DNA of 64,000 nt. Origin: Spirochaetaceae bacterium (GTDB taxonomy: Bacteria > Spirochaetota > Spirochaetia > Treponematales > Treponemataceae). The stretch lies in NCBI GenBank assembly GCA_017936345.1, contig JAGBFT010000032.1, forward strand, positions 4,315 through 68,314. The letters are read 5' to 3'. The stretch's first letter is position 1, and the number at the start of each line of letters is the position of its first letter. A program made the position numbers and the translations under genes. Shown in pieces: positions 18,857 through 55,379 of the stretch. Below the pieces are notes generated by a model. The model saw nothing but the letters and a program-made list of their open reading frames with translations. It did not search any database and was not told the origin of the DNA.

Positions 18857-18899
18857 AAGAAAAATCCCGCCACCAGTGAGGGAATCCCAAGGTGGCGGG
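18857..18899 (-). terminator. Terminator copy B closing the orphan cassette array
   Basis: Minus strand CCCGCCACC...GGTGGCGGG-ATTTTTCTT; shares AAGAAAAATCCCGCCACC with 22650-22667. Confidence 0.8.
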
Positions 18900-18928
18900 C
18901 GGGAACAATTACAACTAGGTATGAACAA

Positions 18929-19174
18929 CTATGAAATGTAAACAATATCACCTTCAATTCGATAGGAACTGACAATAGTAGAAACATAGGATGAACCATA
19001 GGAATATGTCCATACCCCTCTATTATTTGTAATTTTACCTCCATAACCACCATTTTCATTTACTAACAAAAAAGAAAAATCATTTGACTTAATCAACTGC
19101 TCAAGTTCTTCACCACAAGCAAACCAACTACTACAACTAAAAAGGAATAACAATATCATTTTTTTTTTCATCAT
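18929..19174 (-). CDS. Putative immunity protein 3 (exported, probably truncated)
   Basis: Signal/lipoprotein-like N-terminus; ATG overlaps (ATGA) the stop of the cassette-2 M23 tail; only 81 aa. Confidence 0.55.
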   Translation of the reverse strand: MMKKKMILLFLFSCSSWFACGEELEQLIKSNDFSFLLVNENGGYGGKITNNRGVWTYSYGSSYVSTIVSSYRIEGDIVYIS

Positions 19175-20155
19175 TGCTTGTCCCGATATGTTTCAAATAA
19201 TTTGCTTGGGTTATAAACCGTTCTCCAACTTCCGTTATACATAGAATCCTTTGAATAATCTAAACCCAAGAGAAGTTTCATTGTAGTATCTGAAAAACTG
19301 ACATTATCCTGTGTATAAACCGAATAATGAAGGTGAGCCCCTGTTGTTTTAGTGCCAGTATTACCAAATCAGTAATGTAAACTCCGTATTCTCCAGAAAT
19401 TCTTACATCATCTGAGACAAAGAAGCTTCCCGCACTCTCATAGAAAGAAGACTTCGCTTGATACAGATTGTTGAACCTGTCCTGGGCAGTGGCGGGAACG
19501 GCATTCACATTTGTTCCAAGATACATACCCTGGCTGCCAGCAATGATGCTGTCCACGGTAGAGTCATAGTACTGGGTAAAAACCTGGGTCGCAATGGTGT
19601 CGCCAGCATTTTCCATCACATGCTTCATGTCCAATGCTCTCTTGTCTGTCTTGTCCCACTGGGCATTACATATTCCGTACTTACCATCAGGATAAGATTT
19701 CCCTATCCCTGAATCTTCTAAAATACTGAATGAAATTACCTTTTCTGCCACAGAAAATTCGTTATACCCCTTTCCGCTGGTTCCGCCAAACAGAATGTTC
19801 AATAGTCCTGATTCTAGTCCGTCTGCACCAATCTGCTTGCCTTCCTTGTTTTTGATGGCCCTGCCATGCTCGTCCGTAAGCCAGCCAGAACCGTCGTTCA
19901 CCAACGTCCCATCATCCATCAGCTTCCAGTAGTCCGCGCTTGCATCATAGTTCCCCGCCACGTAACCGGCGAAGATGGACTCGTCGCCCAAGTACTGGGA
20001 AAGCTTGTAGGCGGTGATGTCCGTGGCAAGATTCTCCGTCATCTGGATTGCCTTGCCGTCATCAAGCATCCGCAGGGCAATCTGGGTGTGGGCGGTGGTG
20101 GCTGCTAGGGTTTCGGCAGCCTGCTGTTCGGCAGTGCCGATGATACCGTCTCGAT
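19171..20155 (-). pseudogene. Orphan toxin C-terminal cassette 2: shared pre-toxin repeat plus M23 peptidase with internal deletion/frameshift
   Basis: Begins 5 bp after the previous gene's stop with RDGIIGTAEQQ...DYWKLMDDG; alternative frame 19171-19368 reads FGNTGTKTTGAHLHYSVY...VYNPSKLFETYRDKQ*. Confidence 0.8.
19909..20155 (-). repeat. Pre-toxin homology repeat, copy 3 (247 bp)
   Basis: Ungapped near-match to 24731-24977. Confidence 0.95.
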
Positions 20156-20160
20156 GGAGA

Positions 20161-21171
20161 TTATTTGACAGTTCTAAATTTACCATACTCTGTATTAAAC
20201 CATTCCTCATTAACCTCAAAGACATTCTCACCATTCCATTGTGTGGATCTTGAAGGTCCAAAGCCATCATGGATGTCTTTATCTGTCCATTTGCTGTAAT
20301 CCCCATAATAATTGAAAGTATTCATGTCAAGGTAATCATACAATCTTTGAATACACAAATCTTTATATTTTCTTCCTTCATAAAAATCTAATATTTCTAT
20401 GTCAACCTCACGAACACTTTCCGGTAGTGGAATTTCATGAAAATGTACTACATCCTCAATTTCTACTTCTAGGATAAAACTAGATTGTGGAGATGTTATA
20501 CGTATTCTTTTTATCCTTCGATTATCTTTATACAAGTGGCGATTTGAAGGGTCGACATAACCATTGAGAAGTAATAAGGAGTCAAATTGCCAACCTGGGC
20601 TATATTGGAAGTGCATCCCTACAGGCTCCTTACTTGTTGCCCAAGGCTTAGCATGGATATTTCTCATTTCTCCGCCTTCCCAATATCTAGCATATACATT
20701 AGAACTCATGTCATCTGTGTTATAAATAATCTTTTCCCCATTCTTATTCTCTACTAAGTAATCAGGAACCTTCAAGGGGGAATTATTTATACTGAATTCT
20801 GAATGATAGGGATGACTATCCCATTTCTTTCTCAAAGCAGTGAAATCGAGTTTTGGATCATAGAGAGTAAACATTTTGTTTTTTGAACTAAACTCAAATT
20901 CATCTGCACCAAAGATACAATAGGTTTTTTCACCAAAAATTTCTGTACTATACCAACCATCTGCATCAAGAATAAAATCCTCAATCCTTCTTTTTTCAAA
21001 TTTTGCTCCAGATCCAATTCCTTCAACAAAATAAATATCTTCATGAACTTTCGTAATAAAAACACTACCTGTATAGCCAAGTCTATCTATATAAAATTTA
21101 TCTGCTATCTTGAATGCATATAAAACGGAAAGCATCGAAAAAATAAATAATGTACATAAAAGCTTTTTCAC
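20161..21171 (-). CDS. Putative immunity protein 2, exported, with C-terminal NADase-type glycan-binding (discoidin-like) domain
   Basis: GTG start 21171 with AGGAG SD gives signal peptide MKKLLCTLFIFSMLSVLYA; PWA..LLNGY..LYKDNRRIKRI..EILDFYEGRKYKDLCI pattern; lies directly behind cassette 1. Confidence 0.65.
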   Translation of the reverse strand: MKKLLCTLFIFSMLSVLYAFKIADKFYIDRLGYTGSVFITKVHEDIYFVEGIGSGAKFEKRRIEDFILDADGWYSTEIFGEKTYCIFGADEFEFSSKNKMFTLYDPKLDFTALRKKWDSHPYHSEFSINNSPLKVPDYLVENKNGEKIIYNTDDMSSNVYARYWEGGEMRNIHAKPWATSKEPVGMHFQYSPGWQFDSLLLLNGYVDPSNRHLYKDNRRIKRIRITSPQSSFILEVEIEDVVHFHEIPLPESVREVDIEILDFYEGRKYKDLCIQRLYDYLDMNTFNYYGDYSKWTDKDIHDGFGPSRSTQWNGENVFEVNEEWFNTEYGKFRTVK

Positions 21172-21251
21172 AAATTTACTCCTAATCATTTAGTAGTTGA
21201 TCAAGACTTCTTCCTTGACCAACTACTAATTTTAAAGTCAATATTTACTAG

Positions 21252-22579
21252 CTAAAACCATTTCAACGATCCTGATATATGATGACCAGAATGTAATCCC
21301 CACTCCTTCAACTTGCTCTGCAAATCATCGAGAGTATGCTCTTGATAAATGAAACAGCCATCTGATGTCAAGTTTGTAGATGAATGCACTAACCATCTTC
21401 CACCAGGATCATTATCAAGGGCAGCTTTATTAATCCAATCTCCATCCATAGTCCAAGCGTTGTGTATTTCCATGATATTTTCAACACAATTGTCTAAACT
21501 AAGGATTCGCAAAGAATAATCTGACATAACAGTATTTCCCTGAGTCCAACCAAAACCATGTAAATAATATGGCTGATCACGATTTATTTCTGCTTTTACT
21601 TTCTTCTGTATTTCTCCATTTTCATCCTTATATTCTTCCATAATTCTTTCAACCACATTATATACGTCCACAGACTGAACATTTCCAGGAGTATATGTAT
21701 CTAACATTTCATTGTTCAAACCATACTTACGATATGTTATCTGGTCTAACTCCCTGTATTGACTCTGCAAAGACTGCGATTTTGTCTCATACGGTTCGGA
21801 GTTCGTATTAAAGACATTTGTTTGATAATCAGATTTTCCATAAGTATATCCGGATAAGCTCCTTGTATCTCTCACCAGCGATGCCGTTACCACAAACCGC
21901 TCGTGATCATAGCTACCATCCACCTTACCAAAAGAGATATATCCCATGGTATTGTTGTCAACCAACTGGAGGCCGGCCATAGTTCCACCCTTCCAACTTG
22001 TTTCTGGAGTGTAGCTAAAACCATTCTTTTTCAACAAGGCTTCCCCTGCCAATTTGGTCAACTGCAATTCCGTCACATCATCAGGTAATTTACCACTTCT
22101 TTGGATTTTGCTTGCTTCCATGTCGGTAACGCCAAGAACATCCATCAATGTCTGTTTATCATATAAATCGGCATTTCCTAAATGTGAACCTAAAAGTTCG
22201 GCAGCTCTCTCCTTTCCTAAAACTTGAACGATTGATCCTGCAGCACTCTCCGTCACATTTTCATGGAAATCTGTACCTACAAGTTCCCATTCACCATCTT
22301 GACCCTCAGCATAATATTCTATTGTCAGATCAGTAATCAATTTGCCATCGTCATCATACTCTGCCTCTAGGAAATGGCTTCCGTCACTTCGGGAAATCAG
22401 CTTCCAATAATCCGCACTTGCATCATAGTTCCCCGCCACGTAACCGGCGAAGATGGACTCGTCGCCCAAGTACTGGGAAAGCTTGTAGGCGGTGATGTCC
22501 ATGTCCAGGTTCTCCGTCATCTGGATTGCCTTACCGTCATCAAGCATCCGCAGGGCCATCTGGGTGTGGGCGGTGGTGG
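21252..22579 (-). CDS. Orphan toxin C-terminal cassette 1: shared pre-toxin repeat plus L,D-transpeptidase-fold (Tlde1-like) tip; open frame with no credible start
   Basis: Starts TTAHTQMALRMLDD...DYWKL as in the giant protein; ends WLVHSSTNLTSDGCFI; no SD or signal peptide; downstream of a terminator. Confidence 0.75.
22396..22579 (-). repeat. Pre-toxin homology repeat, copy 2 (184 bp)
   Basis: Ungapped match to 24740-24923, 16 mismatches by manual count. Confidence 0.95.
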
Positions 22580-22649
22580 AAGAATATGTTTGCTGGTCAC
22601 AAGTCTTTTGTGGCATGGTTCTATTGTACAACGTGATGGACCAGTTGTA

Positions 22650-22682
22650 AAGAAAAATCCCGCCACCTTGCGGGGTGGCGGG
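22650..22682 (-). terminator. Terminator copy A ending the pump-toxin-immunity operon
   Basis: Minus strand TCCCGCCACC-ccgcaa-GGTGGCGGGA-TTTTTCTTT, about 20 nt after the immunity-1 stop. Confidence 0.85.
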
Positions 22683-22702
22683 AGGGGGAAAAAATTTACA
22701 AA

Positions 22703-23533
22703 TTATAAATACAAATTTATCTTATCTAAATACTTACCATACATCCACCCCTCAATCATATCCCCATGAATCTTATACCAGTACCAGGTTTCGCCATCGA
22801 TTGTTTCCGGTTCTGCAGAACGTTCTCTTACCTGTACTTCTACATTCTTGTCTACAACCCCCAGAATATCTCCCTTTAAACCCGGACTATTCCTAACTCG
22901 GACACGGTAATCATTCACATAGGCATACCACCATCCCCAAGTACTTTTTAAGTCATTTTCAAGAGAATATTGTTTTCCCTCATTTTCCACAACCTCAAAT
23001 ATCCCCTGTTCTCCATCCATTTTGAATACATATTGGGGATACAAAACCTCATCGGAGGGAGCTGGACTTGTATCAGGAGCATTAACCGGATATTCATATA
23101 TCCCATCAATACGATAAGACGGAAACCCCTTTCCATAAAACTTCTGACTTTCCCTAAAACTTTCTATTGTCTCTGAGATGTATAATACGGAATTAGGGTG
23201 ATTATGTACTACAAAGTCATAACATACATATTTTCCTGGTTGATATTGTTTTTCCACCATAAAAATGGTGAAATTGCTGAATCTTAGAGGTGTTATCAGA
23301 TATTTTGGAGACTTATAACCATTCGAATCAGACACATTTCCTAAAGAGCGTGCAAATGGAGAATTATAATACGCTTCACTTCCAACATAAGAATTTATCT
23401 CTTTCAATTCTTTCGTTCCTATGGATTGCAAATCAGAGTATTTTTTGAACACAATCGAAGGAACAAACTGCTCGCAATATGGCTGAAAAAGGATGAACAG
23501 AGACAATACCAATGTTAAAAAAATAGTTTTCAT
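22703..23533 (-). CDS. Putative cognate immunity protein 1, exported, C-terminal SH3b domain
   Basis: Signal peptide; VNDYRVRVRNSPG...WYKIH...EGWMYGKYL; ATG 5 nt after the toxin stop, SD inside the toxin gene. Confidence 0.7.
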   Translation of the reverse strand: MKTIFLTLVLSLFILFQPYCEQFVPSIVFKKYSDLQSIGTKELKEINSYVGSEAYYNSPFARSLGNVSDSNGYKSPKYLITPLRFSNFTIFMVEKQYQPGKYVCYDFVVHNHPNSVLYISETIESFRESQKFYGKGFPSYRIDGIYEYPVNAPDTSPAPSDEVLYPQYVFKMDGEQGIFEVVENEGKQYSLENDLKSTWGWWYAYVNDYRVRVRNSPGLKGDILGVVDKNVEVQVRERSAEPETIDGETWYWYKIHGDMIEGWMYGKYLDKINLYL

Positions 23534-23538
23534 TCTTT

Positions 23539-26500
23539 TTATTCTCCTTTGTTATAAGAGTGAGCTGAATCACGCTTTTTATACTGGGTTATATCGGCAA
23601 AAATAAATCTGTCGTAGTAATATTTATTATCATGGAAGATATAATCATACTCATTCCCTTTATACAAATCTTTATAAGTACCATAGCTTTCACTTTCTTT
23701 GATAGGAGAATAATTTCCCATTGCCTTTGTGTAGGCAACATCTGATAAATAATTCAAGTAAGGACTTGGTCTGACAGTATAAATATCTTCATGTGAATGA
23801 TTTCCATATCCAGAATCTCCCCATTTGCCTGAATTTCCAGTTTTACCAAGAACGGTATCAAACAAAACACTTTGCCCTTCAACAACATCGACGCTGGAGA
23901 GATGTAGTGTTCTGTAAATCAACTCATCAACAATACTATTTCCTTTGAACGTATAAGTAACATCTGTCTGAACACCGACATGTCTTCCTTGATAATTTGA
24001 GTCATCTAAATCCCCCTTAGATGCATACACCACCTTTGACGTTTCATTTTGGAATAATGGCAGAGAATCAGTGTCTGCTTCAACACTTCCATCAACACCT
24101 CGATGTGGATTCACAGAAAGATTGCCCGTTGCTCCAGTAAATGTTGTAATGTCTCTATTTACGAATGTATTTCTTGTATTCAAAACTGGCATACCACCCG
24201 TAATATAGTTCTTGGCTTTAAACTCCTCATAACTGATATATCCACCATCCGCATTTTCATAGAATTCCAAACTCTCAACTGTTGCGGGATCTGTTTCCAC
24301 ACGAAGTTCCATTCTAGCAAGCCGCGACCTCATGGAATCTCCGGGTTTTTTGTCCATAGTTCCATTCGCAACCATCTTGTCGTAAATCGTGCGTGGATTT
24401 AAATTCCTTATTGTATCAGTTTGTCCAGTTGTCGAATCAACCAAAACACGTGAATTGTATATCTCTTCATATTTTGACACATCAATAACCTTTCCATAGT
24501 TCGACTCTACATTCCAATACCAATGTTCCCTGTTGGCCAAATCATCTGATTTCGTCGTATGGTCAAAACTTGCCTCAAGCAAATCCCTGACCTTTTCCAC
24601 TTCTTCTTGGGTTGCATTCCCTCCATACATAATCTCTACCAGGCTTCCTTCCAGTCCACGTGATTTTGTCTTATAGATTAGATTGCCATTCTCGTCATAG
24701 AGGTCAGCATGACCATCATAGGTAATGCTTCCGTCATCCATCAGCTTCCAGTAGTCCGCACTTGCGTCATAACTCCCCGCCACGTAACCGGCGAAGATGG
24801 CCTCATTACCCAGCCCCTGGGAAAGTTTGTAGGCGGTGATGTCCATGTCCAGGTTCTCCGTCATCTGGATTGCCTTGTCGTCATCAAGCATCCGCAGGGC
24901 CATCTGGGTGTGGGCGGTGGTGGCGGCAAGGGTTTCACTGCCCTGCTGTTCGGCAGTACCGATGATGCCGTCACGATAGGACTCGTGGCCCAAGGCAATG
25001 GCACTGTTGTAGCTGTTGCCACTATTTACCAGCTGTATCAGGCGGCCGCCGACTCCGTTGCTGGTGGTGCGGGCGGTGAATCCAGCCTGCTCAACAAGCT
25101 CCAGCTGGTCAAGGCCGCTGGCAAGGCGGGCGGAGGTGTTCTCCTGAGTCCAGTCTCCGTACACGTAGTTGTTCCAGGCTGCATCCCCCTTCTCCTGTCC
25201 ATGGGCTGCTGTGTAGGATTCCAATGATCGTTTATCCAGGGCACGCTTTCCCAGGTCGTACAGGTTGCCGCTCAGGTCAATGCCGCCGGAGCCGATGCCG
25301 GCGCTCACTCCGTCCAGTCCGATGTTCAGCATGACTCCCCTGCCATCCAGCTTGTCCATGACCTTGCCCAGGATGTTTTGACCAGTGGAGTTGTTGCGGG
25401 CAATGCCGCTTCCCACAAGGTCAGCCAAGGCTCCGAAGCTGGCCACATTCACGCTGATGCCTCCCATGGCCTCGTAGGCTCCAGCCCAGTCACCTCCATT
25501 GAAGGCAGCATGGATTCCATAGCTGGCGGCAGTGCTTGCAGCCGATGTGGCCAGACTCATGGCTCCGCCATAGAATTTGTTCGCCTCGGCTCCCATCGCT
25601 CCGAACACTCCGCTTCCATAGGTGGAAACTCCGGTACTGGCCGCTCCAGCCACCAAGGATGACCACATACTCTTGTTTCCTATGTGGCTCATGAACATTT
25701 CCCTGTTGAAGAAATCTCCGCTGCCTATCTTGTCGAAGTCCATGCTCTGCAGCGTGGTGGTGCTGAAGGTGGACAGGGCTCCGCTGACAAGGTTGAGTCC
25801 GGCGGTGGCGGTGGCTCGTCCTACGGTGCTGGTGATGTCTGATATGGCATTCCCCGCCCAGTTGGTTCCCGCACCAATGGCAACACCCGCCGCCTTGATG
25901 GCAACCTCACGGCCAATCTCCCCGGCGGTCTTGTAGCCTCCGCCCAAGTCAATACCTGCAAAGACAACATCGTCCACATACTTCAGCCAGTCTTGGCCCA
26001 GGGCCGAGCCGACAATGTTCATGGCTATTTCGCTCACCTCCCGTAGAGTGGGTGCTGTGAAGGGCAAACCACGGTCGTCGAACAGCCGCTTGTCGTGACC
26101 AGCAAGACTCAGCTCCGCCATGCCCTTCCGGGCCTGGATGCTGTTCCAGTAGTACTCCACCAGGATGGCTCCCATCTGGCCGCTGCCAAGGTCGCTGAAG
26201 GCCGCATTTTTGGAACCGTCAGGGTCGGGGGTGCCGACCAAGTCCGGAGCCTCTCCGATGTGCTCCTCCAGCCGCCCACCTGTACCCAAGATTTCCCTTC
26301 CCCACTGCTCCAGTTCTCCTTGGGCAAGAGACAGCTGCAGCATGGCCTTTTTACCAGGATTGGCATCAATTTCTCGGAGTTGGGGACTTGTAGTCGTAAA
26401 AAATTGATACATCGGAAGATATTGCGTTTCTTTTATTGGATTAAATAAGGTGGCATCAACAACTACAGTACGACGAATGCTGCCATCCACCCGATAGCCT

Positions 26501-29500
26501 GCATCCCTAGCCAAATGGTGCTGCCAGTCCACCATGGATTGGTTTTTACTGTCAATTCCTTCCATATAACTAGCCAAAACTTCTTCCAGGATTTTCTGTC
26601 CATAACTGACAGCCTGTCGTTCCGCCAGATTGGTCATTAGGGTGGTATTCTTTTCTACCTGTTGACGAGCCAGCAGATGACTTTCCAAGCTAGAAGTACT
26701 GCCACGATTTTTTCTAATTCCAGAACCTCCCTTATTTCCAAAGCCTGTTAGAATACTAGCCCGGTTAATGAGGTCATCCAGATATGAATCGGCAAGAATG
26801 GCATCTACTGCGGCTTCAGTTTCTTCAGAGCTTATGGAACTTTCCATAGCCCTACCAAGGTATTTGATTTCCTCTTCAATACCCTCTAAATTCACTGGAA
26901 AAACAGTCTCACTAGCTTTTACCAACCCTTGTTGAATGGCGACTTTGTGACTGTTTTGAATCCACTCTTCCTTACTTTTGAGAAAATTTAAATGATTGTC
27001 TTGCCATTCGGCCTGCCTGTCCTCCAGCTCCTGCTGGAATTGCCGTCGCCACAGGCTGTACCTTTTATTCAAACTCTCCTCCACCCGTTGCCAGCTATCC
27101 TTGCCAGCTGCCAAGGTTTCCATAATCTCCCCTTCCCACAGGCTTTGGCGACGAAGCAACAGGTCCCGCTCCAGCTGCCATTGATGGCCTGACTGGTCAA
27201 CCATTCGCTCCGCTGAGTCTTGCCAGCCTGCAAGTCCTTGGCTTATGAGCAGGTCTTGTAGCCAGAGGGTATAATCCTCTGTTTTCTTTCGTATATCTAC
27301 TCTTGAATTATACAGCGACATTGCAGCATTGTAAATATTTTTTTTATGGATGAGATTGTTCCAGCCATTGGCTCCGTAGGCACGTTCGGCCAGTCTCGCA
27401 AGCTGGTTCTGTGTCTCGCCGTCCATACCGTCCAGGGACTGGTAGAGTTTTTCAAAATCCTCCATGGCAGCCTGACGTTGACTTGTAGAAAGACTTTCAT
27501 CGGTTGCCATAAATTCCAGTTGGGCAAGACGTTGCTCATCCTCTTCTGTAATAATGATACTCTTTTCAATGATTTGGTGGAAATTCATCATGGCAATCGA
27601 GGATGCCTCTTCCATGTTTAATGCCTGAAAGGCAAGCTTTTCCTCCTCTTCCTGCAGGCCAACCTTTAAGGTATTTAAAACCTCCTGCAGTGCGTCTGTT
27701 ATCTTCAATGGAGCTTCTGGGGAGACAACCATCTGGCTTATGGTGGAATCCAACAGTTGGGGAGACAGAAGGTCCTGGTATTCTTTCTTGTTTACGAGGG
27801 AATTATTTGCAAAAATCTTATCCAGGACAGTTAAAATTGACCGGGAACTAAGATTTGGTTTTCCATCGGAGGATGTAGCGGAGGCTTGTCCATCCTCTGT
27901 TGTCCCGGTTCCATAGTAGAGCTCATTCAAGATTCGCCATTGCTCCTCAAGATTTCTTTCTCCTGCAATGAGTCCACTCAACAGCTCGTTCACACGATTG
28001 GTTTCGGTTTCAACATTTTCCTTGCTGCCCCTCATCAAATCATAAATTCCATCTACAGCTGCCCCCAGGCTGATGGCAGCATCTGTGGCAACTATACCTA
28101 CTGCTGTGGCGGCAGCAGCTGCCGCCCATAACCATGGCTGAAAACAGGCGGCTGCGGCAGCCAATGCCGCAGCGGAGGCATAGGCTATGACAGCCTCAAT
28201 TATCTTTTCCTGCTGTTTGTCATACAACTCGTCCTTTACTCCGTCAAGGGCAAGCCACTTTACCAAGTCCCTTTCTTTTTGACGCCAATTGTTTTCATTC
28301 AAGAGATTTGTTTCCCTATATAAAATATAACGGGCAAGGTCATTTTCTCCGCCAGACCTTGATAAAATATAATTGTAGGCATTGGCCACTACATCACGCC
28401 TTTCGCCATTGTATCGTTGCTTTGTATCTATAGAGTGAAATTTTCTGACCTCGGGTACTTGGTCCGCCTGAAAGTCACCTGCGTTCCGAATATCAGACTG
28501 ACCATCCAAAAAATCCATTCCATTGGGAGCATAGGTTTTTAGATGAAGACTTGCCAGGAGCAGATTGTTGATATAATCATCTCCCTTGGCATAGATATCC
28601 TTGAGCCATTGACGCACATCCACTTCCGCCCTTGTTTGCTGGACGGGACCATCGACACGAACAAGGGTCTCACTGGAATTTGTAAGATATTCAGCCAGCA
28701 AATTCCTATCCAAATCACCTGTCCCTGTTTTTTTTGATGTTACGTACTCGTAATACTCTGCTGATGAACCACTGAACCTTGTCCTTTGAAGAACAGTTTC
28801 ATAGCCAAGGGTAAATACATAATCTCCTGCTCCCGTTTTTTTGATTCGAATCAATTCCAAGGCTACAGTATTCATACCCTCTGTTCCTGGGTCAGTCTTG
28901 TTTTCCATCAGTGACTCATAATCCCTGAACAGCTTTGAAACATTCATCTCATCCTTGATTTCCGCATCACGGGTTATTTCTTCCTGCTTTACAACCGCAT
29001 CAAATACTTGAGATAATATCACCTCCATAAGATAGGCATTTTCCAAGGATTTACTGTAAACATCTACCTGATCAAGATATTCTGAACCTTGCATCTGCTG
29101 GTGATTTTTCATTTGACTGAGAATATCCAGGGCATTTTGATAACGGTTTACAACCAACAATACATCGTTGTACCGCCTAAGGGGACTAGCATATTGTAAA
29201 TTATCCTGTGAATTTTCCTGTAAACTGGAGTTACCCACACTTTCAAGATAAATTCTCGTTGCCCACTGGTATTTTTCTTGGGCAATCCGATGCTGCAACC
29301 TTGACTGAACAAAGGCCTGATGCATAACTTCTTCTTTCTCAACACTTTGTTGATACATTTCCATTTTTTCTTGAATTTGAGCATGAGCCTTTTTATAGCT
29401 TTCCAGTATTTTTTGACTTTCTTGTTCCTCGATTAATACTTGTTCTTCAAAATTAATCTTTTCATTCAACAGGTTTTGCAATTCAGAATTCATCATCATG

Positions 29501-39607: not shown

Positions 39608-41166
39608 AGTTTGTTCACCTGACAAATACTTGTCTTACCCAATTTATTCCCCAGAGAATCACTTGTTTCCGGCGCAAGCTCCAGAGTTACCAATCCCCTT
39701 TGATTTTTATTGAGCAGCTCCAACTGAAATTTGACAGTTACAATTTTCCCTGAATTCCCACTGTCAACTTGCAGCTCCTGATTAAATTCTGGCAATTCTT
39801 TTTTAAGGAGTAAAAAATCCTCGTACAGGCTTGTATCTTCGATACCTGCACCCTCCAGTCTTTTTAAAGTAAGCTCACAACAATCATTGGCAGCCGAAAG
39901 AAGGGTATGTTCCATAAGACTAAACTCGTCCATTCCTGTGGCCTCAGAAGAAACCTTGAAAAAAAGGTTCAATTCAACTGTGCTGTGAAAGGTTTCTTGG
40001 ACAGAGGGATAGGTCTCCGGTGGCAATACCATTGACGAAAACGGATTTGAGGGAGAAAAAACCACCCGTAAATCCTGCTGCCCATCTAAATTTGTCATCA
40101 AAGCGCCCAAAAACTCCGGCGGACGGAATTTTTCCAGGGTGTAGGCAAGAGTAATCTCCTGCTCGCTTTCCAAGGCATTTCCTCCTGTATCTTCAATCCC
40201 TGGCTGAACTACAAGTCTCCAGCTTTTACCCCAAGCTTCATTTTCATCGGAATTCCACCTTGGCCTAAGCCTTAAGCTTCGCCCTCCTTTGTAGTCCCTT
40301 ACTATTTCCAGTGGCGACGCAATGGTAGAATGTCCCACTGGCTCAAGAAAAATAAAAGAGGAAACTTGGTCTAGATTTATATCCTTGGTAAACTCCAGAT
40401 AAATCCACTCATCTGGAGCTAGGGGTACAGTTCCCCCATGTTCCACCTCTTGCTGGGATACCTTAAAGCTCAGTTCAAGGGGATTTAAATCCATTTGGTA
40501 ATAGAAGCTTTTTGCCACCTCCTTTGGCAGGAAATTTCTATGGATGTCCATTACCGACGAGTCAAGAGACACAATATACCGTTGATTGTTTTCCAATTGT
40601 TTTTTAGGAATCACCCTAACACAGTGATTTCCATTGTAGTACTCCAAAAAATAGTCAAAATCAGGAGAAATTCTCAGCCCCTTTTCCAAGGACTCCTTGT
40701 CTATAGCTTGGGAAAATTCCAGCTGAATTGGAAATGAGTTTTGAACCACAACTATTTCCACTGTCAGGGTTGTCAAATTATCACGGGTGGAATGCGTATA
40801 CTCAAAGGTTTCCATCAAAGAGTGACCCCGTCCATCTTCCGTTCCAGCTTCTATCCTGATTATGTATTCACGATTTTCCTGTATTCCATAAGTAGGTACA
40901 AATTGAGCCTTGTTTCCCAAAACAGAGAGGTTTCCCTCCAGCTTTTTTCCGTCCTCTGTGACACTCAATCCATTTTTTAACGAGGAAAAATCGGGAGGAA
41001 GGGAAAATTCAATAAAAACTGTATTATTTTCTACACTACATGATACTACTTCTAGAGGTGGAAGCATAATAGTTCCACAAGAAGGTAGGAGGCATAAAAA
41101 TAGCCCCATCAAAACCATTCCCTTTATAATCTTAATCCCGTTTATAAAATCTGAATAATAAGACAT
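39604..41166 (-). CDS. Lipoprotein with tandem Ig-like (Big_5/SbsA-like) domains
   Basis: Lipobox LPSC; repeated EFS/EFT...L..N..Y...D..GN.L units. Confidence 0.65.
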   Translation of the reverse strand: MSYYSDFINGIKIIKGMVLMGLFLCLLPSCGTIMLPPLEVVSCSVENNTVFIEFSLPPDFSSLKNGLSVTEDGKKLEGNLSVLGNKAQFVPTYGIQENREYIIRIEAGTEDGRGHSLMETFEYTHSTRDNLTTLTVEIVVVQNSFPIQLEFSQAIDKESLEKGLRISPDFDYFLEYYNGNHCVRVIPKKQLENNQRYIVSLDSSVMDIHRNFLPKEVAKSFYYQMDLNPLELSFKVSQQEVEHGGTVPLAPDEWIYLEFTKDINLDQVSSFIFLEPVGHSTIASPLEIVRDYKGGRSLRLRPRWNSDENEAWGKSWRLVVQPGIEDTGGNALESEQEITLAYTLEKFRPPEFLGALMTNLDGQQDLRVVFSPSNPFSSMVLPPETYPSVQETFHSTVELNLFFKVSSEATGMDEFSLMEHTLLSAANDCCELTLKRLEGAGIEDTSLYEDFLLLKKELPEFNQELQVDSGNSGKIVTVKFQLELLNKNQRGLVTLELAPETSDSLGNKLGKTSICQVNKL

Positions 41167-42620
41167 ACATCCTCCTCAAGGTAATTTCCTGCATCAGTTT
41201 TTAGTCCAGAAGTTCCACCGGAAATTTCCAGTCGATAATAATTTTTCACATCATTTGAACTGGGGGAAAATCCAGACCAATAAAGTGAAAGTCCTGAATT
41301 TTTGTCATACGAAACCTTTTCCAAGATTGGATAATTGGCTGTTATGGGGAAAAGTGGCTCCATAGTGATTGTTCCAAGGTCATTTTGCAGGGACGCAAAA
41401 CCAAGAGGCTGGCTAAAATTGATTCTTGTAATGACAGTGGATTTTTCATCAGTGATGGCAATTTCCTTCAATGAGCCTGACTGAAAATTACAGCCTTCTG
41501 TGTCCGTCCCGTCTTCCAGAGCGTTCCCGCCATCCTCCCGACCTTCCCCTGCATCCGGTGTTTCTTCACCCAACTGAATCGAAGTAACCTGCAAAAACCG
41601 ATTGGCCACAGTAAAATAGTGATCCACATTCCGAGTCAGTTGATTTCCGGATAAATCCTTTACATCATGGGAAACAATCAGACGATACTCTTTTTCCAAA
41701 GACCAATTTTCTTCTGGAACCCATAAAAAATCCTTTCCAGAACTACACCTCTGCAATTCTCCTGCAATGTTTGGCTCAATGCTCACCCCATTTTTAACCG
41801 AATCAAAGTCCATCTCCTTTGAAAAACGCAGCAAGATCGACTGATTGTCAAAAAGCAAGCCACTGTCTTGAGCATAGACAATCAAGTCATTGTCAACAAC
41901 CGACAAGACAGGCACAACCTTTTCTACACAAGGAATTACTGTATCAATATCCCAAATAAAATTTCCCTGATACTGCTTATCGAGCAGGTATCCATCCACA
42001 TCCTCAAACTGGTTCAAAACCCAGTTGAATCTCTGATTTTTAGTCCAGGCCTCCTGAGGTACCACCAAAACCTGGCAACCGTTTTTTTCAACATAAAAGT
42101 CAAAGGGGATTTGCGGAGTCAACGAAAAGCTTTTTGAAAAACCAGGAATTGAAATGGGGCTGACAAACTCAAGCACCAGAGGTCCCCTTTCACTTGCAGT
42201 CGGTTCCGTCCATTTCAGGAGGCCGAATTTTTTTGAGGGAGCTCCGTAGAAAAAAATCCTGTAAAAATGAACGGAGTGGCTTCCCCCGGCATCAAGCTTT
42301 AGCTCGCCTTGGATTCCAATAGAATAAGCCACGCCCCTTTGCCATGGTTCCACAGGCTTTACAAAGGCCTTATTTCCTTCCAGCCTCATCTCAAAATCAA
42401 CCGATGAGGCATCTCTTTGAAATACAATAAGTTCTTTTAAGCTTTCCTTATCTGGAAGCAAGGAAAAATCGATTTCAACCTCATCTTCCAGAAAATACCC
42501 ATTATTCTCTGGAACAGAACAGCTTACCTCCAGCCTTGCAAAATCAACAAATTTGCAAGATACCATGTATGCTAAAGTATACATTATAATAAATATTCTA
42601 GATATTTTTTTAGTTGACAT
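41142..42620 (-). CDS. Lipoprotein with tandem Ig-like (Big_5/SbsA-like) domains
   Basis: Lipobox MVSC; LRFSKEMD...EYRL..VKDLSGNQL; TDAGNYL. Confidence 0.65.
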   Translation of the reverse strand: MSTKKISRIFIIMYTLAYMVSCKFVDFARLEVSCSVPENNGYFLEDEVEIDFSLLPDKESLKELIVFQRDASSVDFEMRLEGNKAFVKPVEPWQRGVAYSIGIQGELKLDAGGSHSVHFYRIFFYGAPSKKFGLLKWTEPTASERGPLVLEFVSPISIPGFSKSFSLTPQIPFDFYVEKNGCQVLVVPQEAWTKNQRFNWVLNQFEDVDGYLLDKQYQGNFIWDIDTVIPCVEKVVPVLSVVDNDLIVYAQDSGLLFDNQSILLRFSKEMDFDSVKNGVSIEPNIAGELQRCSSGKDFLWVPEENWSLEKEYRLIVSHDVKDLSGNQLTRNVDHYFTVANRFLQVTSIQLGEETPDAGEGREDGGNALEDGTDTEGCNFQSGSLKEIAITDEKSTVITRINFSQPLGFASLQNDLGTITMEPLFPITANYPILEKVSYDKNSGLSLYWSGFSPSSNDVKNYYRLEISGGTSGLKTDAGNYLEEDVCLIIQIL

Positions 42621-44028
42621 CCTGACCCTCCTTCAAAAAAGGAGATGGATTGTCTACAATCAGGTCTCCAGCTTGTAGGCCCTCCGAAATCCAAATCATT
42701 CCATCACTTTTACCCAAAACCTCAACATCTTTTTTTACCACCCTTCCTTGATGGATTATAAACACCTCGCCCATCCACTGTTTATTTTCTATTTTATTTT
42801 CACCTACTAGGGCTGATTCAGGAATGGTTGGAAATGAGGATGATTCCCGTGGTAAAATACATTTAACAAACATTCCGGGTTTCATTTCTCTGTTCTCATT
42901 TTTTAGATAGGATTTAAGGGTAAAATTGCCACTTTGAGAGTCAGCTACAGGAGAAATTTCTTTTATTGGTGCTTTAATCCTCACTCCCAAAGAGGGAACC
43001 TCCACTTCTACCGGAGAGCCAACAGAAAAATACCCAATATCCTGTTCTTGGATGGAAAAAACCGCATGGACTTCATCTATATCCATTACTGTAAGAAGTT
43101 TTTCCTTTCCACTTAAAAACTCCCCTTGCTCAAAGTAATTTACAGCCACAATTCCTTCTTTTGGGGAACGTATTACAAGATGGGATAAGGCTTCATTTAT
43201 TGATTGCAGGTTTTTTTCTGCTGAGTCTAAATTTGCCAGGGCTGAATCTAGGGCTGCCTGCAAGCTTCGGGTATTTAATGAAACTAATTGCTGCCGCCGA
43301 GTCTCTGGGTTTTCGTCCGGCATAATTCCATTTTCAAGTAAATCTTGGTTTCTAAATCCAAGAGCCTGTCTTTCGTATTCCTTCAGAGCAATTTTAAAGG
43401 CCGCTTTTTTTCCTTCTAGTGCTACCTCCTGGCTACGGTAGGCGGCAGCTGTTATACCTCCCAATGCCAGAAGTTCGCCTTGATTTTGGAGCTCCAGCTC
43501 GGCTTCTTCCAACTCGAGTCTCTGCTGTTGCAGTTGTAATTCTAGTTTTTCTAAATTAAGAAGGTTGCCTTCTACAGCAAGGCGCCCTTCTTCCAATCGG
43601 GTTTTTGCAAGATTTACCTCAGCTTGTGCGGATTTTAGAGCAGACTCTCCCTGTTGACCTTGAATTTGTAGTTGAAGATTTTCCATTTCGGCTAGGATTT
43701 GTCCTGAATATACCCTATCCCCTTCTTTTACATAAAGTTTTTTTAGAATCCCTTCCACTTGAACAGTGACATCATTTTTTTCACTATAATAAATTGTTCC
43801 AAAGCTACTTATATCTTGAAGAAGTTTTGAAGAATAAACTTCAAATTTTTCTACGGTGGAAATATTTTTTTCCTTTGATTCCAAAGCTTTCTGCTGTTCT
43901 TCTCCATCTAGGGTAAAACCAACTAAAAGCAAGATACTACAGAGAAAAATTAGAAAAAAAACAACACAGAGAACCTTGTTTTTTAGCAAAAATTTGCTGA
44001 ACAAAAATTTATTTACCAATAACTTCAT
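42610..44028 (-). CDS. RND periplasmic adaptor (MFP) with long alpha-hairpin
   Basis: N-terminal TM; LYVKEGDRVYSGQIL, IRSPKEGIV, MKPGMF, IPESAL, GLQAGD. Confidence 0.92.
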   Translation of the reverse strand: MKLLVNKFLFSKFLLKNKVLCVVFFLIFLCSILLLVGFTLDGEEQQKALESKEKNISTVEKFEVYSSKLLQDISSFGTIYYSEKNDVTVQVEGILKKLYVKEGDRVYSGQILAEMENLQLQIQGQQGESALKSAQAEVNLAKTRLEEGRLAVEGNLLNLEKLELQLQQQRLELEEAELELQNQGELLALGGITAAAYRSQEVALEGKKAAFKIALKEYERQALGFRNQDLLENGIMPDENPETRRQQLVSLNTRSLQAALDSALANLDSAEKNLQSINEALSHLVIRSPKEGIVAVNYFEQGEFLSGKEKLLTVMDIDEVHAVFSIQEQDIGYFSVGSPVEVEVPSLGVRIKAPIKEISPVADSQSGNFTLKSYLKNENREMKPGMFVKCILPRESSSFPTIPESALVGENKIENKQWMGEVFIIHQGRVVKKDVEVLGKSDGMIWISEGLQAGDLIVDNPSPFLKEGQDVN

Positions 44029-45391
44029 ATATACCTCCTGATTTTAATCCAGCCATCAACTCAATAGTCCGCAGAAGTGAATTAAGATTGTTTTGTAACT
44101 CCACAATTTCAATTTTCATAGCGGCAAGCTCCATCAGCGATTGAAGATAATCCATCTCTGTTGCTTCCCCGTTTTCTAGTTTTTGGAACAGAATTGACAC
44201 CTTTTTTTCTTGAATTTCAACAGAATCCCTAGAAAAATCACAGTTTTCCTTGGTTGTATCATAGTTGAGTAAGAGTCCTCTCATGGAGTTTCTAATTTCT
44301 TCTTCACTGGTTCCCAAGGAAAACTGCTTTTGCAGCAGTGAAATTGAAATCAAACGGTTTTGAGAAAAATATCCAATATCAGGATTAAGACTTCCAGACA
44401 CAGAATTACCAAGGCTTTCCATTTTTTCTTGATTGAATCCCATGGAGGTGGTATTGCTCAAGGAAACAAGATTATTTTTCTCAAAACTAATTTTTAGTCG
44501 CAGGGAAAAGTCTGGTTCCCGTAGGGGAAAATCAATTCCAGAAAGATTGACACTTCCTTCCAATGTAAGATTTGGTAAAAACCACCTTTTATTCATCCTT
44601 TTTTGCTGGACAAGGTTGTCATATTCCAATCTTTGTTGCTTCAAACTTGGACTGTAATTTATGGTAAGCTCCACCAAGGGGTCTAGGTAAGAGGACAAGA
44701 AGGGCTTTGCTCCAACCTCATTTCCTCGATTTTCTTTTTCAATAATAATCTCTGTTCCAAAAGGCAGACCTAAGGTTTGACGAAATATTTCTTTTTGTTT
44801 TTCCAGCTCTGCTTTTGCCAAGTTTTCCTCCTGCTCCAGCTTACGACAGGTAACGATGTAATCCAGGTAATCAATTTCTCGTACAAGCCCCAGCTCCAGC
44901 TCCTTTGCCATAATTTCTTGGCGCAAGAAACCTGATTCTTTGACATCTTTTTTTATTTTAACTACCTCTTGTTGCATTACAATGGAATTATATCCGTCAA
45001 GAATCTGTGACTTAAATTCCTCCAGACTTTGTAAATAGGATTGAAATTCATACTGACTTTGCAAGTTATTCACCTTGTATTGATTCCAAGCCGCCCCGCC
45101 GTCAAACACCAGCTGACTTAAACTGAATTGAAGAGTTTTACTTCTACTATCAGCCATTCCCTTTTTTACTGTATCTGATTCAGAATATGAGAAGCCTAGT
45201 CTGGGCAAAAAGTCCTTTACGGAAAGCCTTGCTTTTATCATATTTTCCTTAACCTTCAGTTCCTGGAAAATTTGATTTTTTGAATTTTGCAAGGCAATGG
45301 CAATGGCATCCTCACCAGAATCTACAGTAATTTGAGAAAATACAGGTAATATTAAACTGAAAATCCATAATGAACAGAGAAGCCGCTTCAT
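44009..45391 (-). CDS. TolC-family outer-membrane efflux protein
   Basis: Signal peptide; AIAIALQNS, DFLPRL, QLVFDGG, two OEP repeats; start at ATG 45391. Confidence 0.88.
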   Translation of the reverse strand: MKRLLCSLWIFSLILPVFSQITVDSGEDAIAIALQNSKNQIFQELKVKENMIKARLSVKDFLPRLGFSYSESDTVKKGMADSRSKTLQFSLSQLVFDGGAAWNQYKVNNLQSQYEFQSYLQSLEEFKSQILDGYNSIVMQQEVVKIKKDVKESGFLRQEIMAKELELGLVREIDYLDYIVTCRKLEQEENLAKAELEKQKEIFRQTLGLPFGTEIIIEKENRGNEVGAKPFLSSYLDPLVELTINYSPSLKQQRLEYDNLVQQKRMNKRWFLPNLTLEGSVNLSGIDFPLREPDFSLRLKISFEKNNLVSLSNTTSMGFNQEKMESLGNSVSGSLNPDIGYFSQNRLISISLLQKQFSLGTSEEEIRNSMRGLLLNYDTTKENCDFSRDSVEIQEKKVSILFQKLENGEATEMDYLQSLMELAAMKIEIVELQNNLNSLLRTIELMAGLKSGGIYEVIGK

Positions 45392-45891
45392 TATTCCTCC
45401 TCTAATGGAGCAAGATTTTCCCATTCTTCAATTAATTCTTCTACTAGGGATACAATATATTTTTTCTGGTATTTTACCTGTGAAATCGAAGCTTTTCCCG
45501 TTGCCAAAACTGTCTTTTGCAATAAAACCTCCTGCCCTTCATTGAGGATTTCTCCAGTGATTGCAAAGGAAGCCCTTTGTTTTACTCCTTCCCACACAGT
45601 CCGTTGATTAATTTTAAGAACCAAGTTTCCACCAATTCCTGCTTTATTACAGGTACTGTTATATGTTTTAATTTTAGAATCTATAGCTTGGCAAATCTGG
45701 CTTTGTATAAGGGAGTCTTTGACGTAGTCAATATTTACATGGATATCATTTGCCGAAAATAAAATTTCACCTGAACTAAAATTTTCCACAGGCTGAATAA
45801 AAGTATATTTTTTTACACTTGTGCAGGCTGTGAAGTTCAAAACCTGAATAAATACCAATAGATACAAACCTATTTTTTTCTTTCTAACCAT
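45391..45891 (-). CDS. Hypothetical lipoprotein
   Basis: Lipobox FTAC; GAGG SD; TAATG overlap with the TolC gene. Confidence 0.7.
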   Translation of the reverse strand: MVRKKKIGLYLLVFIQVLNFTACTSVKKYTFIQPVENFSSGEILFSANDIHVNIDYVKDSLIQSQICQAIDSKIKTYNSTCNKAGIGGNLVLKINQRTVWEGVKQRASFAITGEILNEGQEVLLQKTVLATGKASISQVKYQKKYIVSLVEELIEEWENLAPLEEE

Positions 45892-45901
45892 AATTTTCCT
45901 C

Positions 45902-46579
45902 CTATTTTTTGAGCAAGGTTTCTAAGGTTTCAAATAAAACCCTCAATTCACCATGGGCTGGAACAAGGAGCCGTGCCTGTTCCAAATGCTTTTTGGCTTG
46001 GTCTTCCATTCCCAGCACAAGCCAAAGTTTTGTCAGGTCAAGATAAACCTTTGCTCCATCAGATAGAGCCCGTTCTGCCTGTTGCAAGGAAACAAGTTGT
46101 CCGCTATAGTTTTCATTTCTTGCATCAACTATGCCCTTCAGATAATGTATTCTCCAATCTGTTTCGTTTAAGGCCAATTCTTTTTCCAAAAGAGGGGCCA
46201 CTTCATCAAATTTTTCTTGTAAAATCAGTAGACGGATATACCACAGGCGAGCATCCGTGTATTGGGGAACTCTTTTAACTAAGCGTGCTATTAGTTTCTC
46301 TGCCGTTTCATATTCATTGAGAAAAAACAGAGACTTAATCCGCAATAACTCTGCCTGAAAAAGATTTTTATCTTTTTGTAGAATAGATTCACAAAGCTCT
46401 ATGGTACGAGAAAAATCTTCTTGACTATATGAATCCAATGCGGAAAGATACAATTCATGTCCAGAACCATCTACCTTGCAGCTAAAAAAAACACCTAAAA
46501 ATAATATACACAGTGACATTACAGTGATTTTTATAAACAAAATGAAGAATCGATATACAACCACCTTGTTAATTTGCAT
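45902..46579 (-). CDS. TPR-repeat lipoprotein
   Basis: Lipobox FFSC; TPR-like helical pairs. Confidence 0.75.
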   Translation of the reverse strand: MQINKVVVYRFFILFIKITVMSLCILFLGVFFSCKVDGSGHELYLSALDSYSQEDFSRTIELCESILQKDKNLFQAELLRIKSLFFLNEYETAEKLIARLVKRVPQYTDARLWYIRLLILQEKFDEVAPLLEKELALNETDWRIHYLKGIVDARNENYSGQLVSLQQAERALSDGAKVYLDLTKLWLVLGMEDQAKKHLEQARLLVPAHGELRVLFETLETLLKK

Positions 46580-46594
46580 CCTCTCCTTGTCCCC

Positions 46595-47962
46595 CTAAAA
46601 TAAAATTGAATCCAGCAATGAATTGTTTTCTTTTTCATCACTGACCTGTGTTGCAACAAGATTCTGTATTTCTTGCCTGGCATCCCTTGCAAAAACACCT
46701 GAGGGATTGAGAGCAATTGTCTTTTTTAATGCAGGGATAAAAGCTTCCCCATTGCCCAAATCCTTTGCTACAGTCCAAAGAAGCCAGTAATAGGAAGGAG
46801 AACTTATAAAATAAGGCTCTAGCCCTACCAAAGAATCAAGGTCCCCCTTGACAATTCTTCCTTCTTTGTACCGAAGTGCTGCCTCACAATAGGTTTCTCC
46901 AAAGAATTTTTCTTCCTGATAGTCAGACTCCCCAGGAACTACCACACTATGTCCAGAATTGGTTTTGGAAATTTTATTTTCTTCCCTCATGTCAACTAAT
47001 TTTTTATATTCAGAAATCCAATTTTCTCCAGTTACAGGGCTTTCATCATCTAAACCAAGAAGTCCAAGCACATAATCTTCTCTAAGAAAACTACAGATTT
47101 TTTCTTTGTAGTCATTGTTGGTTGCAGCGTAAATTTCTTGTGCTACAAGAATGGTATCGAGGGTAACAGCGTTTCTTCTGAAAAACTCCTCCACCATGGC
47201 CTCAGCCTCATTAGTTCGCTGAACCCGAACCAAGAGTTTACCGTATCCTAGAAGATGCATGGAGGCCAAGCCCTGTGGATTTAATTTGTACGCTCTATCA
47301 TAATATTCCAGAGCATTTTCAATGGTTTCTTCTTGGACAAAATCCTCAGCTTCCGCCATGGAAAACAAAACCTGAGCCATAAGATAAAGGCTAGGAACCA
47401 CCAGTCCTTCATCCGTATTCCCCAACCTACTGCAATGATAGTCTGTCAAGGCAAGACTTGTTTTGCCATATTTTTCCGCCCCGTTTATATCATCACGAAA
47501 AAGACACAGGTAACCTAGAAGTCTATGCAAAAGCTCTAGGTCAATATCAGTAAGACCATCAGGAATATTCATTTGGGAAATTTGATTTGAAATTAAAGTT
47601 GAGTCATCACCGTCCGTAGCAGAATCCTCAAATTCCATTCCAAAACCAGCCTCATCTGCCAATGACAAAGCCCTTTGCAAATATTGCCAGCTAAGGACAT
47701 GGTTCGCCTGAGAAAAATACCACTGGGCTAAATCCAATTTTGACTTGAAATGGGCAGGATTGGCAACTTCAAATTCTATCAGGGAAGCCACCAGTTCCTG
47801 TTGTGAATTAGCCGAAAGGTAAAGTTCTTCGTAAGATTCTTGTAAGGCCCTATCACTTACCACCTGTTCCCCAGTTTGGGAACAAGAGGTAGCCACGAAA
47901 ACAACACAAGAGACCGCAAGGGTCACACAGCAAAAAATTGTTGTAAGTTTTAACTTTTCCAT
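46595..47962 (-). CDS. TPR-repeat lipoprotein, first gene of the pump-toxin operon
   Basis: Lipobox ATSC; ALEYYDRAYKLNP, LKKTIALNP. Confidence 0.7.
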   Translation of the reverse strand: MEKLKLTTIFCCVTLAVSCVVFVATSCSQTGEQVVSDRALQESYEELYLSANSQQELVASLIEFEVANPAHFKSKLDLAQWYFSQANHVLSWQYLQRALSLADEAGFGMEFEDSATDGDDSTLISNQISQMNIPDGLTDIDLELLHRLLGYLCLFRDDINGAEKYGKTSLALTDYHCSRLGNTDEGLVVPSLYLMAQVLFSMAEAEDFVQEETIENALEYYDRAYKLNPQGLASMHLLGYGKLLVRVQRTNEAEAMVEEFFRRNAVTLDTILVAQEIYAATNNDYKEKICSFLREDYVLGLLGLDDESPVTGENWISEYKKLVDMREENKISKTNSGHSVVVPGESDYQEEKFFGETYCEAALRYKEGRIVKGDLDSLVGLEPYFISSPSYYWLLWTVAKDLGNGEAFIPALKKTIALNPSGVFARDARQEIQNLVATQVSDEKENNSLLDSILF

Positions 47963-52892: not shown

Positions 52893-52895
52893 AAT

Positions 52896-55360: not shown

Positions 55361-55379
55361 ATTTTTTTCCTCATGTTGA

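Follow-up and report, generated by a model that had tools for sequence, protein, structure and literature searches.

TolC-dependent protein secretion is credited to ATP-binding cassette (ABC) motors, with CdzAB-CdzCD as one example of type I secretion, and resistance-nodulation-division (RND) pumps are exporters of small molecules and lipids, whose substrates they capture from the periplasm. Polymorphic toxins, among them contact-dependent inhibition (CDI/CdiA), Rhs, MafB, LXG and TANFOR proteins, combine a giant carrier with a variable tip, an adjacent partner gene, a pre-toxin protease-like domain or Hint, and orphan tip/partner cassettes that share a recombination anchor, and the accessible text of Zhang et al. 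2012 (PMC3482391) contains no mention of TolC, RND or type I secretion. MacAB-TolC exports heat-stable enterotoxin II after a Sec step, according to the available part of PMC8277102. Here we describe a locus in a 64,000-nt window (the whole stretch of DNA analysed) of a Spirochaetaceae bacterium (assembly GCA_017936345.1, contig JAGBFT010000032.1, positions 4,315 to 68,314 of the forward strand), in which an operon joins a heteromeric RND pump to the gene for a 3287-aa protein, hereafter the giant, and is followed by two orphan cassettes. Window coordinates are used throughout, and all features of the locus lie on the minus strand.

Like polymorphic toxins, the giant has a tip that varies, a partner gene beside it and orphan cassettes with a recombination anchor, and its zincin-like trunk domain may correspond to their pre-toxin domain, but the carrier matches no known family of trafficking or repeat domains and is tied to an RND tripartite machine; it is also absent from the trafficking domains listed in the accessible part of Nachmias et al. 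(bioRxiv 2021.10.19.465003), where neither TolC nor RND appears. As in type I secretion (HlyBD-TolC; the LapA and SiiE giants), TolC and a long-hairpin membrane fusion protein (MFP) stand beside a giant cargo gene, but the machine here has an RND pair and no ABC transporter, the cargo bears an N-terminal Sec-type signal and varies at the C-terminus, where the type I cargo signal sits, and the giant contains no RTX-type repeat family. Unlike CDI (type Vb) carriers, it lacks filamentous haemagglutinin repeats and a two-partner secretion domain (0 Pfam matches), and, unlike Rhs proteins and type VI secretion system (T6SS) effectors, it is accompanied by no YD/Rhs core, PAAR or VgrG. The order of events predicted here, Sec to the periplasm and then a tripartite pump, is that of MacAB-TolC and enterotoxin II, with an RND motor and a protein of 300-480 kDa in place of an ABC motor and a peptide. 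Heteromeric HAE-1 RND pumps (MdtABC) likewise have two adjacent RND genes, an MFP and an outer membrane factor (OMF), whereas the pump described here, at about 25% identity, has additional TPR and Ig-like lipoproteins, a 179-aa MFP hairpin and a giant partner. The TIGR04388 'Lepto_longest' proteins are also giant spirochete proteins with variable ends, and the tip of cassette 1 has the fold and the His/Cys motif of YkuD enzymes and of Tlde1, a T6SS L,D-peptidase effector, but sits on a giant trunk and is paired with a discoidin-domain partner. The logic of the toxin cassettes is known; what is new is the carrier family and the machine. The author of an earlier note on this DNA knew of no described system of this architecture, and our full-text literature searching, with subscription journals mostly outside it, found no description of one.

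A conserved giant carrier with a variable tip

The giant (23539..33402), a putative carrier-toxin, comprises in order a signal-like segment, a Trp-rich domain, a long E/Q/K-rich region that is likely helical, an Ala-rich hairpin, a trunk rich in Gly and Ala, and lastly the variable tip, and gave 0 Pfam and 0 NCBIfam matches, with no known repeat family matched in Pfam. The predicted Sec signal peptide (aa 1-29; 33316..33402) coincides with a hydrophobic segment at aa 8-35, and such a hydrophobic N-terminal segment is present in 109 of 117 long homologs. The conserved Trp-rich N-terminal domain, delimited by alignments (aa 11-433; 32104..33372), served as the marker of the family: its profile retrieved 475 representatives at 50% clustering, and for 20 of these names were returned, in which every taxon stated was a spirochete (T. 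parvum, T. socranskii, Leptospira sp. and metagenome-assembled genomes of Spirochaetota). The Ala-rich hydrophobic hairpin (aa 1733-1787; 28042..28206) lies within the E/Q/K-rich, likely helical stalk.

Beyond the stalk, alignment and modelling define a conserved, putatively pre-toxin trunk (aa 2361-2900; 24703..26322), in which a Gly/Ala-rich part precedes a zincin-like domain, at about aa 2732-2842, that has an invariant His-Glu and, in the alignment, lacks the second His of HExxH. The trunk model has a predicted local distance difference test (pLDDT) value of 57 overall and about 80 in the zincin-like domain, with trunk residues 84-242 unmodelled; the domain matched deuterolysin (Z 7.2, root-mean-square deviation 4.4, 105 residues aligned), and several other zincins were among the structural matches. 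Foldseek returned no match at E<=0.001 for the trunk model or the cassette 1 tip model, PDB sequence searches with tip and trunk profiles gave nothing useful, and in the ESM Atlas the trunk leads were all under 0.9, with none for the N-terminal domain. The GC content of trunk DNA (0.59 at 24703-26292, versus 0.43 across the remaining carrier sequence and 0.45 in the genome) suggests that the recombining trunk segment may have come from another lineage.

The C-termini of giant homologs, which the earlier note had expected to differ, are variable and not invariant. Homolog P0002 is 97-100% identical to the window giant over aa 1-2400 and 22-29% after 2600, and in one cluster, which includes Treponema socranskii proteins, eight of nine members compared with P0105 show 84-99% identity to it along 2500 aa and 15-20% terminally, the difference being confined in these eight to the last 450 aa or so. 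The tips of the 117 long proteins, some of these being truncated open reading frames (ORFs), fall into 37 clusters and comprise 29 M23-like, 21 YkuD-like and, by motif, 15 papain-like, plus singletons. Pfam matched M23 in 10 of 44 tips (E<0.05), and NlpC/P60, M15, Endonuclea_NS_2 and PT-HINT tips were seen in four proteins, with a Pfam match in 5 of 14 whole proteins; a PF15607 tip also occurs among the homologs, and PT-HINT was found in the G236 and P0022 giants. The window tip (23542..24702; GC 0.38) is predicted to be an M23 (LytM-type) peptidase, since it clusters with PF01551-bearing tips and carries the M23 motifs HxxxD and HxH in its own sequence (H3100xxxD, H3202xH). Most tips are predicted to be peptidoglycan hydrolases. 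Enzyme domains that vary at the C-terminus of a conserved carrier are one of the features of polymorphic toxin systems and are present in these proteins, and the giant, its tips and its partners very probably constitute a new class of them, toxicity and immunity being read from the architecture.

Partner genes and orphan cassettes

The gene that follows the giant (22703..23533) encodes a putative cognate immunity protein, exported as judged by its hydrophobic N-terminus and ending in an SH3b domain (PF08239, SH3_3). Beyond it the earlier note had described alternative C-termini, each with an exported partner, which is true of the first cassette; the second has decayed. Cassette 1 consists of a tip (21252..22631) with the anchor and a YkuD-fold (L,D-peptidase/Tlde1-like) domain bearing His..Ser-x-Gly-Cys, and of a putative, exported immunity protein with an NADase-type discoidin domain (20161..21189; PF25302, and NF047619 above its cut-off). 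In the model of this tip (pLDDT 74) the top 20 structural matches, Tlde1a among them, are all of the YkuD fold (Z 5.5-7.8, the next match having 2.6), and the catalytic His and Cys are conserved in the alignment. A predicted complex of this tip with its partner was uninformative (score 0.00) and was not used as evidence. The tip of cassette 2 (19170..20155), an anchor with a decayed M23 domain, shows 84-97% identity to the M23 tip that homolog P0007 carries, yet some 100 internal residues are missing and there is a frameshift near 19368; its truncated partner (18929..19174) has only 81 aa, which match at 38% identity a portion of an SH3b partner of 275 aa from G019.

A 247-nt repeat family connects the giant to both orphan cassettes. 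Its three copies (at 24731, 22387 and 19909) are 77-100% identical, the homology begins abruptly inside the cassettes, and repeat comparison places the common recombination anchor of the giant at 24731..24977. The GC content of tips and partners is low (0.33-0.39 versus 0.45). Both genes of cassette 1 have a counterpart at 97-99% identity in a cassette of G014, a genome whose giant N-terminal domain is 62% identical, and such a near-identical cassette beside a distant carrier indicates that cassettes move between lineages. Arrays of six and three cassettes occur in G047 and G301.

A hydrophobic N-terminus is present in 34 of 35 partners, against 273 of 683 background ORFs, and exported partners fit periplasmic self-protection. 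Partner class also follows tip class: an NADase-discoidin partner, counted if encoded by either of the two genes after the tip, follows 15 of 17 YkuD-type tips (G005 and G031 lacking one) and none of 23 other tips, with two tips classed by eye and G049, G017 and G058 omitted because no partner ORF was picked. The partners of other tips contain SH3b, LRR, TPR, MORN or RCC1 domains or belong to no known class. Separately, the end of contig C121 of G000 (51382-57541) carries a cluster of exported orphan genes, one with an NADase-discoidin domain and one with SH3b, together with a fragment that by eye resembles an Rhs core; this cluster is a possible poly-immunity locus.

Co-occurrence of the giant and the pump

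We examined 401 Spirochaetota genomes, comprising genomes at least 90% complete and the source genome of the window, for the giant N-terminal domain (E<=1e-15) and the Ig-like lipoprotein of the pump (E<=1e-20). The former was found in 80 genomes under at least 19 family labels, so that the system, with giants of 3,000-4,500 residues, spans the phylum. The earlier note had tied the giant to the pump genes, and the Ig protein is indeed present in 79 of these 80 genomes, versus 22 of the 321 others, the sole giant-bearing genome without it being a 510-contig assembly. In the 74 genomes where the distance could be placed, pump and giant lie within 20 kb in 43, far apart on the same contig in 2 and on different contigs in 29; the last group presumably reflects assembly fragmentation for the most part, except for G019 and G311, where the two are truly unlinked. 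The pump adjoins the giant in 20 loci read, and adjacency has been kept despite inversion or reordering in Leptospira-like and other distant genomes (G088, G154, G236, G411, G290 and G394).

In G001, G018 and G025 only N-terminally truncated cassettes were found, and orthologs of the Ig protein and of the second RND subunit were not found with these queries, apart from a weak Ig match in G018 (7e-13). In the complete genomes G001 and G018 these are trunk-plus-tip cassettes of 800-1280 aa with partners, lacking the carrier N-terminus and pump orthologs (L001-L002, L005-L006), and may be relics or reservoirs. In a control scan with RND1 over 2/64 parts of a contig collection, mostly of generic RNDs and thus no proof of restriction to spirochetes, the Ig pair stood beside 2 of 75 sampled prokaryotic RND loci, both in Leptospiraceae, and was absent from the other 73. 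We hold a functional coupling of the giant to the pump with good confidence.

Degenerate second RND subunits or broken pump parts without an adjacent giant were observed in G261 (L072), G176 (L074) and G113 (L079-L080), G176 having a weak giant match elsewhere in its genome. The pump operons of these three genomes are possibly decaying after loss of the cargo.

Specialisation of the pump

The pump genes encode a TolC-like OMF (44009..45424; PF02321, E 2e-21), an MFP or periplasmic adaptor (42610..44028; TIGR01730, 181.8 bits against a cut-off of 94.9), two probable lipoproteins with Big_5 Ig-like domains (PF13205) that are paralogs at 28% identity (41142..42620, the marker in the co-occurrence counts, and 39604..41166), and two ACR_tran RND subunits, RND1 (36443..39625; PF00873, E 2e-141), whose best PDB match is MdtB, and the more divergent RND2 (33403..36495; PF00873, E 3e-77). 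A segment of 179 aa separates the lipoyl halves of the window MFP; it has exactly this length in 16 of 16 MFPs of the system, versus 22-74 aa in four generic MFPs. In FastTree phylogenies the 23 RND2 rows form one branch with a support of 100, an orthologue group of their own, and RND1 falls into two branches of good support that are separate from six controls and mirror the RND2 branching, its monophyly not being resolved. The Asp of transmembrane helix 4 (TM4) and the Arg/Lys of TM11 are present in 17 of 17 RND1 rows and the TM4 Asp in 15 of 17 RND2 rows, which makes a proton-driven motor plausible; the TM10 Lys is mostly Asn in the RNDs of the system, as it is in two of three control RNDs.

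Other carriers of giant toxins were also sought. The earlier note had seen no CDI, Rhs or T6SS carrier and no type I ABC ATPase at the locus, and in Pfam and NCBIfam none of its 15 proteins matched an ABC ATPase, CdiB, VgrG/PAAR or Rhs. Among five near-complete carrier genomes, a secretin was not found in three, and the T6SS sheath protein VipB, for which the positive control worked, was found in none. A CdiB/ShlB-type transporter matched in 0 of 5 genomes, a search in which the control also gave no match, and none lies in the locus.

Relationship to TIGR04388 proteins

The possibility that the window giant belongs to TIGR04388, raised in the earlier note, was rejected, as no match was obtained at E 0.01 (cut-off 45 bits). 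Nor was the family matched by the giants of G154 (first 2864 aa) and G236, by those of G047 and G305 (0 matches), or by the tested Leptospira-type giants of 4.2-4.5k aa in NCBIfam scans. The TIGR04388 proteins of G154 and G411 are separate ORFs of 2.2-2.7k aa, and such proteins show weak N-terminal similarity to the giant family, which is a remote relative of TIGR04388 and not a member as judged by these comparisons. The published material available on this group tabulates LA3725 and the OMF LA3733 with no link between them in the text (PMC2387172) and notes a Hint domain in LA_3725 (PMC4751964); LA_3725 would itself belong to TIGR04388.

A paralogous second copy of the pump, whose Ig protein has 1225 aa, was observed in G154 (C1:341000-375000; L090-L091) and G112 (L096-L097). 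TIGR04388-type ORFs in these genomes (51 and 40 bits) lie 12 and 4 kb from this second copy. As one TIGR04388 ORF in G411 lies near only a lone generic RND, the link between family and second pump is a lead only.

Organisation of the locus

The eleven ORFs called on one strand (47962 to 22703) overlap or lie within 15 bp of one another, as first described, with gaps in operon order of +15, +10, -34, -20, -11, -25, -22, -53, 0 and +5 nt; the gap of 0 is that at which the giant ATG directly abuts the RND2 stop. Upstream of the pump genes the operon encodes three further probable lipoproteins: a 455-aa TPR protein (46595..47962) with weak TPR matches and orthologs in part of the phylum, a 225-aa TPR protein (45902..46579; PF14559, E 2e-10) that lies beside the pump at almost every locus read and is a core component, and a small protein of 166 aa (45391..45891) with 0 Pfam or NCBIfam matches and orthologs in close relatives. 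Three generic RNDs aside, operon parts are single-copy in the source genome, which is 75% complete.

The terminator noted after the last gene is a hairpin of 10 pairs with a T-tail (22658..22683); because terminator-like sites are no more numerous than in shuffles (3 found versus 3.3), the evidence for it is its position and not the count. A scan of the locus for promoters gave chance level only, and metatranscriptome libraries of one study contain scattered contigs over the giant, the RNDs and the cassettes, which cannot show transcription or its level. Alike GC-rich hairpins stand at the end of the last cassette (18895-18860) and of the main operon (22683-22658), and it is at about 22682-22687 that contigs of related strains part from the window sequence, which suggests that cassettes occur in other orders. 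The flanks are housekeeping genes, for a Borrelia_P83 family protein (16334-17962) and FeoB (48166-50238), with amino-acid biosynthesis genes further upstream. The Borrelia_P83 neighbour and homologs named Treponema sp. and Spirochaetia are consistent in assigning the host to Spirochaetota.

Discussion

The earlier note had suggested that an RND pump has been repurposed to export a giant antibacterial protein, and the toxin architecture and co-inheritance reported here support this suggestion, with export itself inferred and, given the Sec-type signal of the giant, starting from the periplasm and not the cytoplasm. That the RND-MFP-TolC machine serves as an outward channel for the giant we regard as fairly probable. 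In the fuller mechanism, towards which we lean slightly, a proton-driven heteromeric RND motor, a long adaptor of fixed length, TolC and the Ig/TPR lipoproteins would thread toxins of 300-480 kDa from the periplasm, and the paralogous pump copy would serve the TIGR04388 giants of Leptospira. The Sec pathway is predicted to bring giant and partner into the periplasm; there the partner would protect the wall of the producing cell. TPR and Ig-like lipoproteins may then hold or load the giant, and the RND pair, through its proton-relay Asp, would drive it through the long-hairpin MFP and TolC. The helical stalk of about 2,300 aa would be displayed or released, the giant being either set free or tethered by its N-terminal domain, and neighbouring bacteria would be attacked by the tip, in most cases a predicted peptidoglycan hydrolase. 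Recombination at the conserved trunk anchors swaps tips and partners, as the sequences show.

Several observations weigh against this reading. The giant lies unlinked to the pump in G019, G112, G282 and G311, and partly so in G045. A pump without a nearby giant was found in 13 genomes read, many of them fragmented and two with a degenerate RND2, and in the five pump-only genomes tested for each, neither the giant N-terminal domain (0/5) nor TIGR04388 (0/5) was detected. The tallies overstate independence because the genomes are kin, for which reason no weight is placed on Fisher P values, and the window tip itself has no Pfam match. Known cargoes passing from the periplasm to TolC are of about 10 kDa or less in the accessible text of PMC8277102, compared with about 370 kDa here, and the entry of the giant into the pump is a step that we infer from co-inheritance and pump specialisation.

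The alternative that survives best, although we consider it unlikely, is that the pump serves the polymorphic toxin without being its channel, by anchoring or assembling the stalk, by loading vesicles, or by exporting some lipid or small molecule on which the giant depends. Co-occurrence and synteny fit such a role equally well, and it would accommodate the known substrates of RND pumps, the cargo size limit and the pump-only genomes; the absence of any biosynthetic gene from the locus and from every region read argues against it, and the invariant long MFP hairpin, together with the lack of secretin and T6SS in several carriers, favours a conduit.

Two further accounts give the giant another target, and both are improbable. 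If the giant were a self-directed periplasmic remodeller of the wall on an envelope-spanning machine, with the partners as regulators, the predominance of predicted peptidoglycan hydrolases among Treponema-like tips and the SH3b or discoidin domains of partners would be expected, but not the nuclease, PF15607 and Hint-preceded tips, the orphan cassette arrays, the low GC of tips, their swapping within species or the patchy presence of the system (80/401). If it were instead an exported adhesin or foraging enzyme, acting on dead or prey cell walls or on eukaryotes and not on kin, the strict pairing of tip and partner classes and the accumulation of orphan partners, both typical of kin conflict, would be hard to explain, even though its size, its helical stalk and the gut and sediment habitats suit such a role, and the Leptospira-specific toxin tip PT8, whose carrier does not appear in the accessible text, killed fungi in lysates (bioRxiv 2021.10.19.465003). 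Finally, an ordinary efflux pump placed beside a toxin gene by chance or hitchhiking, as pump-only genomes and unlinked cases might hint, is very improbable and already largely refuted by co-occurrence in 79 of 80 genomes over at least 19 family labels, adjacency through rearrangement, co-loss in G001, G018 and G025, and the absence of the Ig pair from the surroundings of all 73 RND loci in the sample that carry a label other than Leptospiraceae.

If export of the giant through the RND machine is borne out, a further protein-secretion route would be added to ABC-driven TolC secretion, and orphan giant ORFs would acquire a function, together with new toxin-partner pairings such as that of a YkuD tip with a discoidin partner. 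The carriers include oral Treponema (T. socranskii, T. parvum) and Leptospira, and the existence of cultured carriers makes the system directly testable. For the spirochetes, it would represent a long-missing interbacterial weapon, present in about a fifth of the sampled species.

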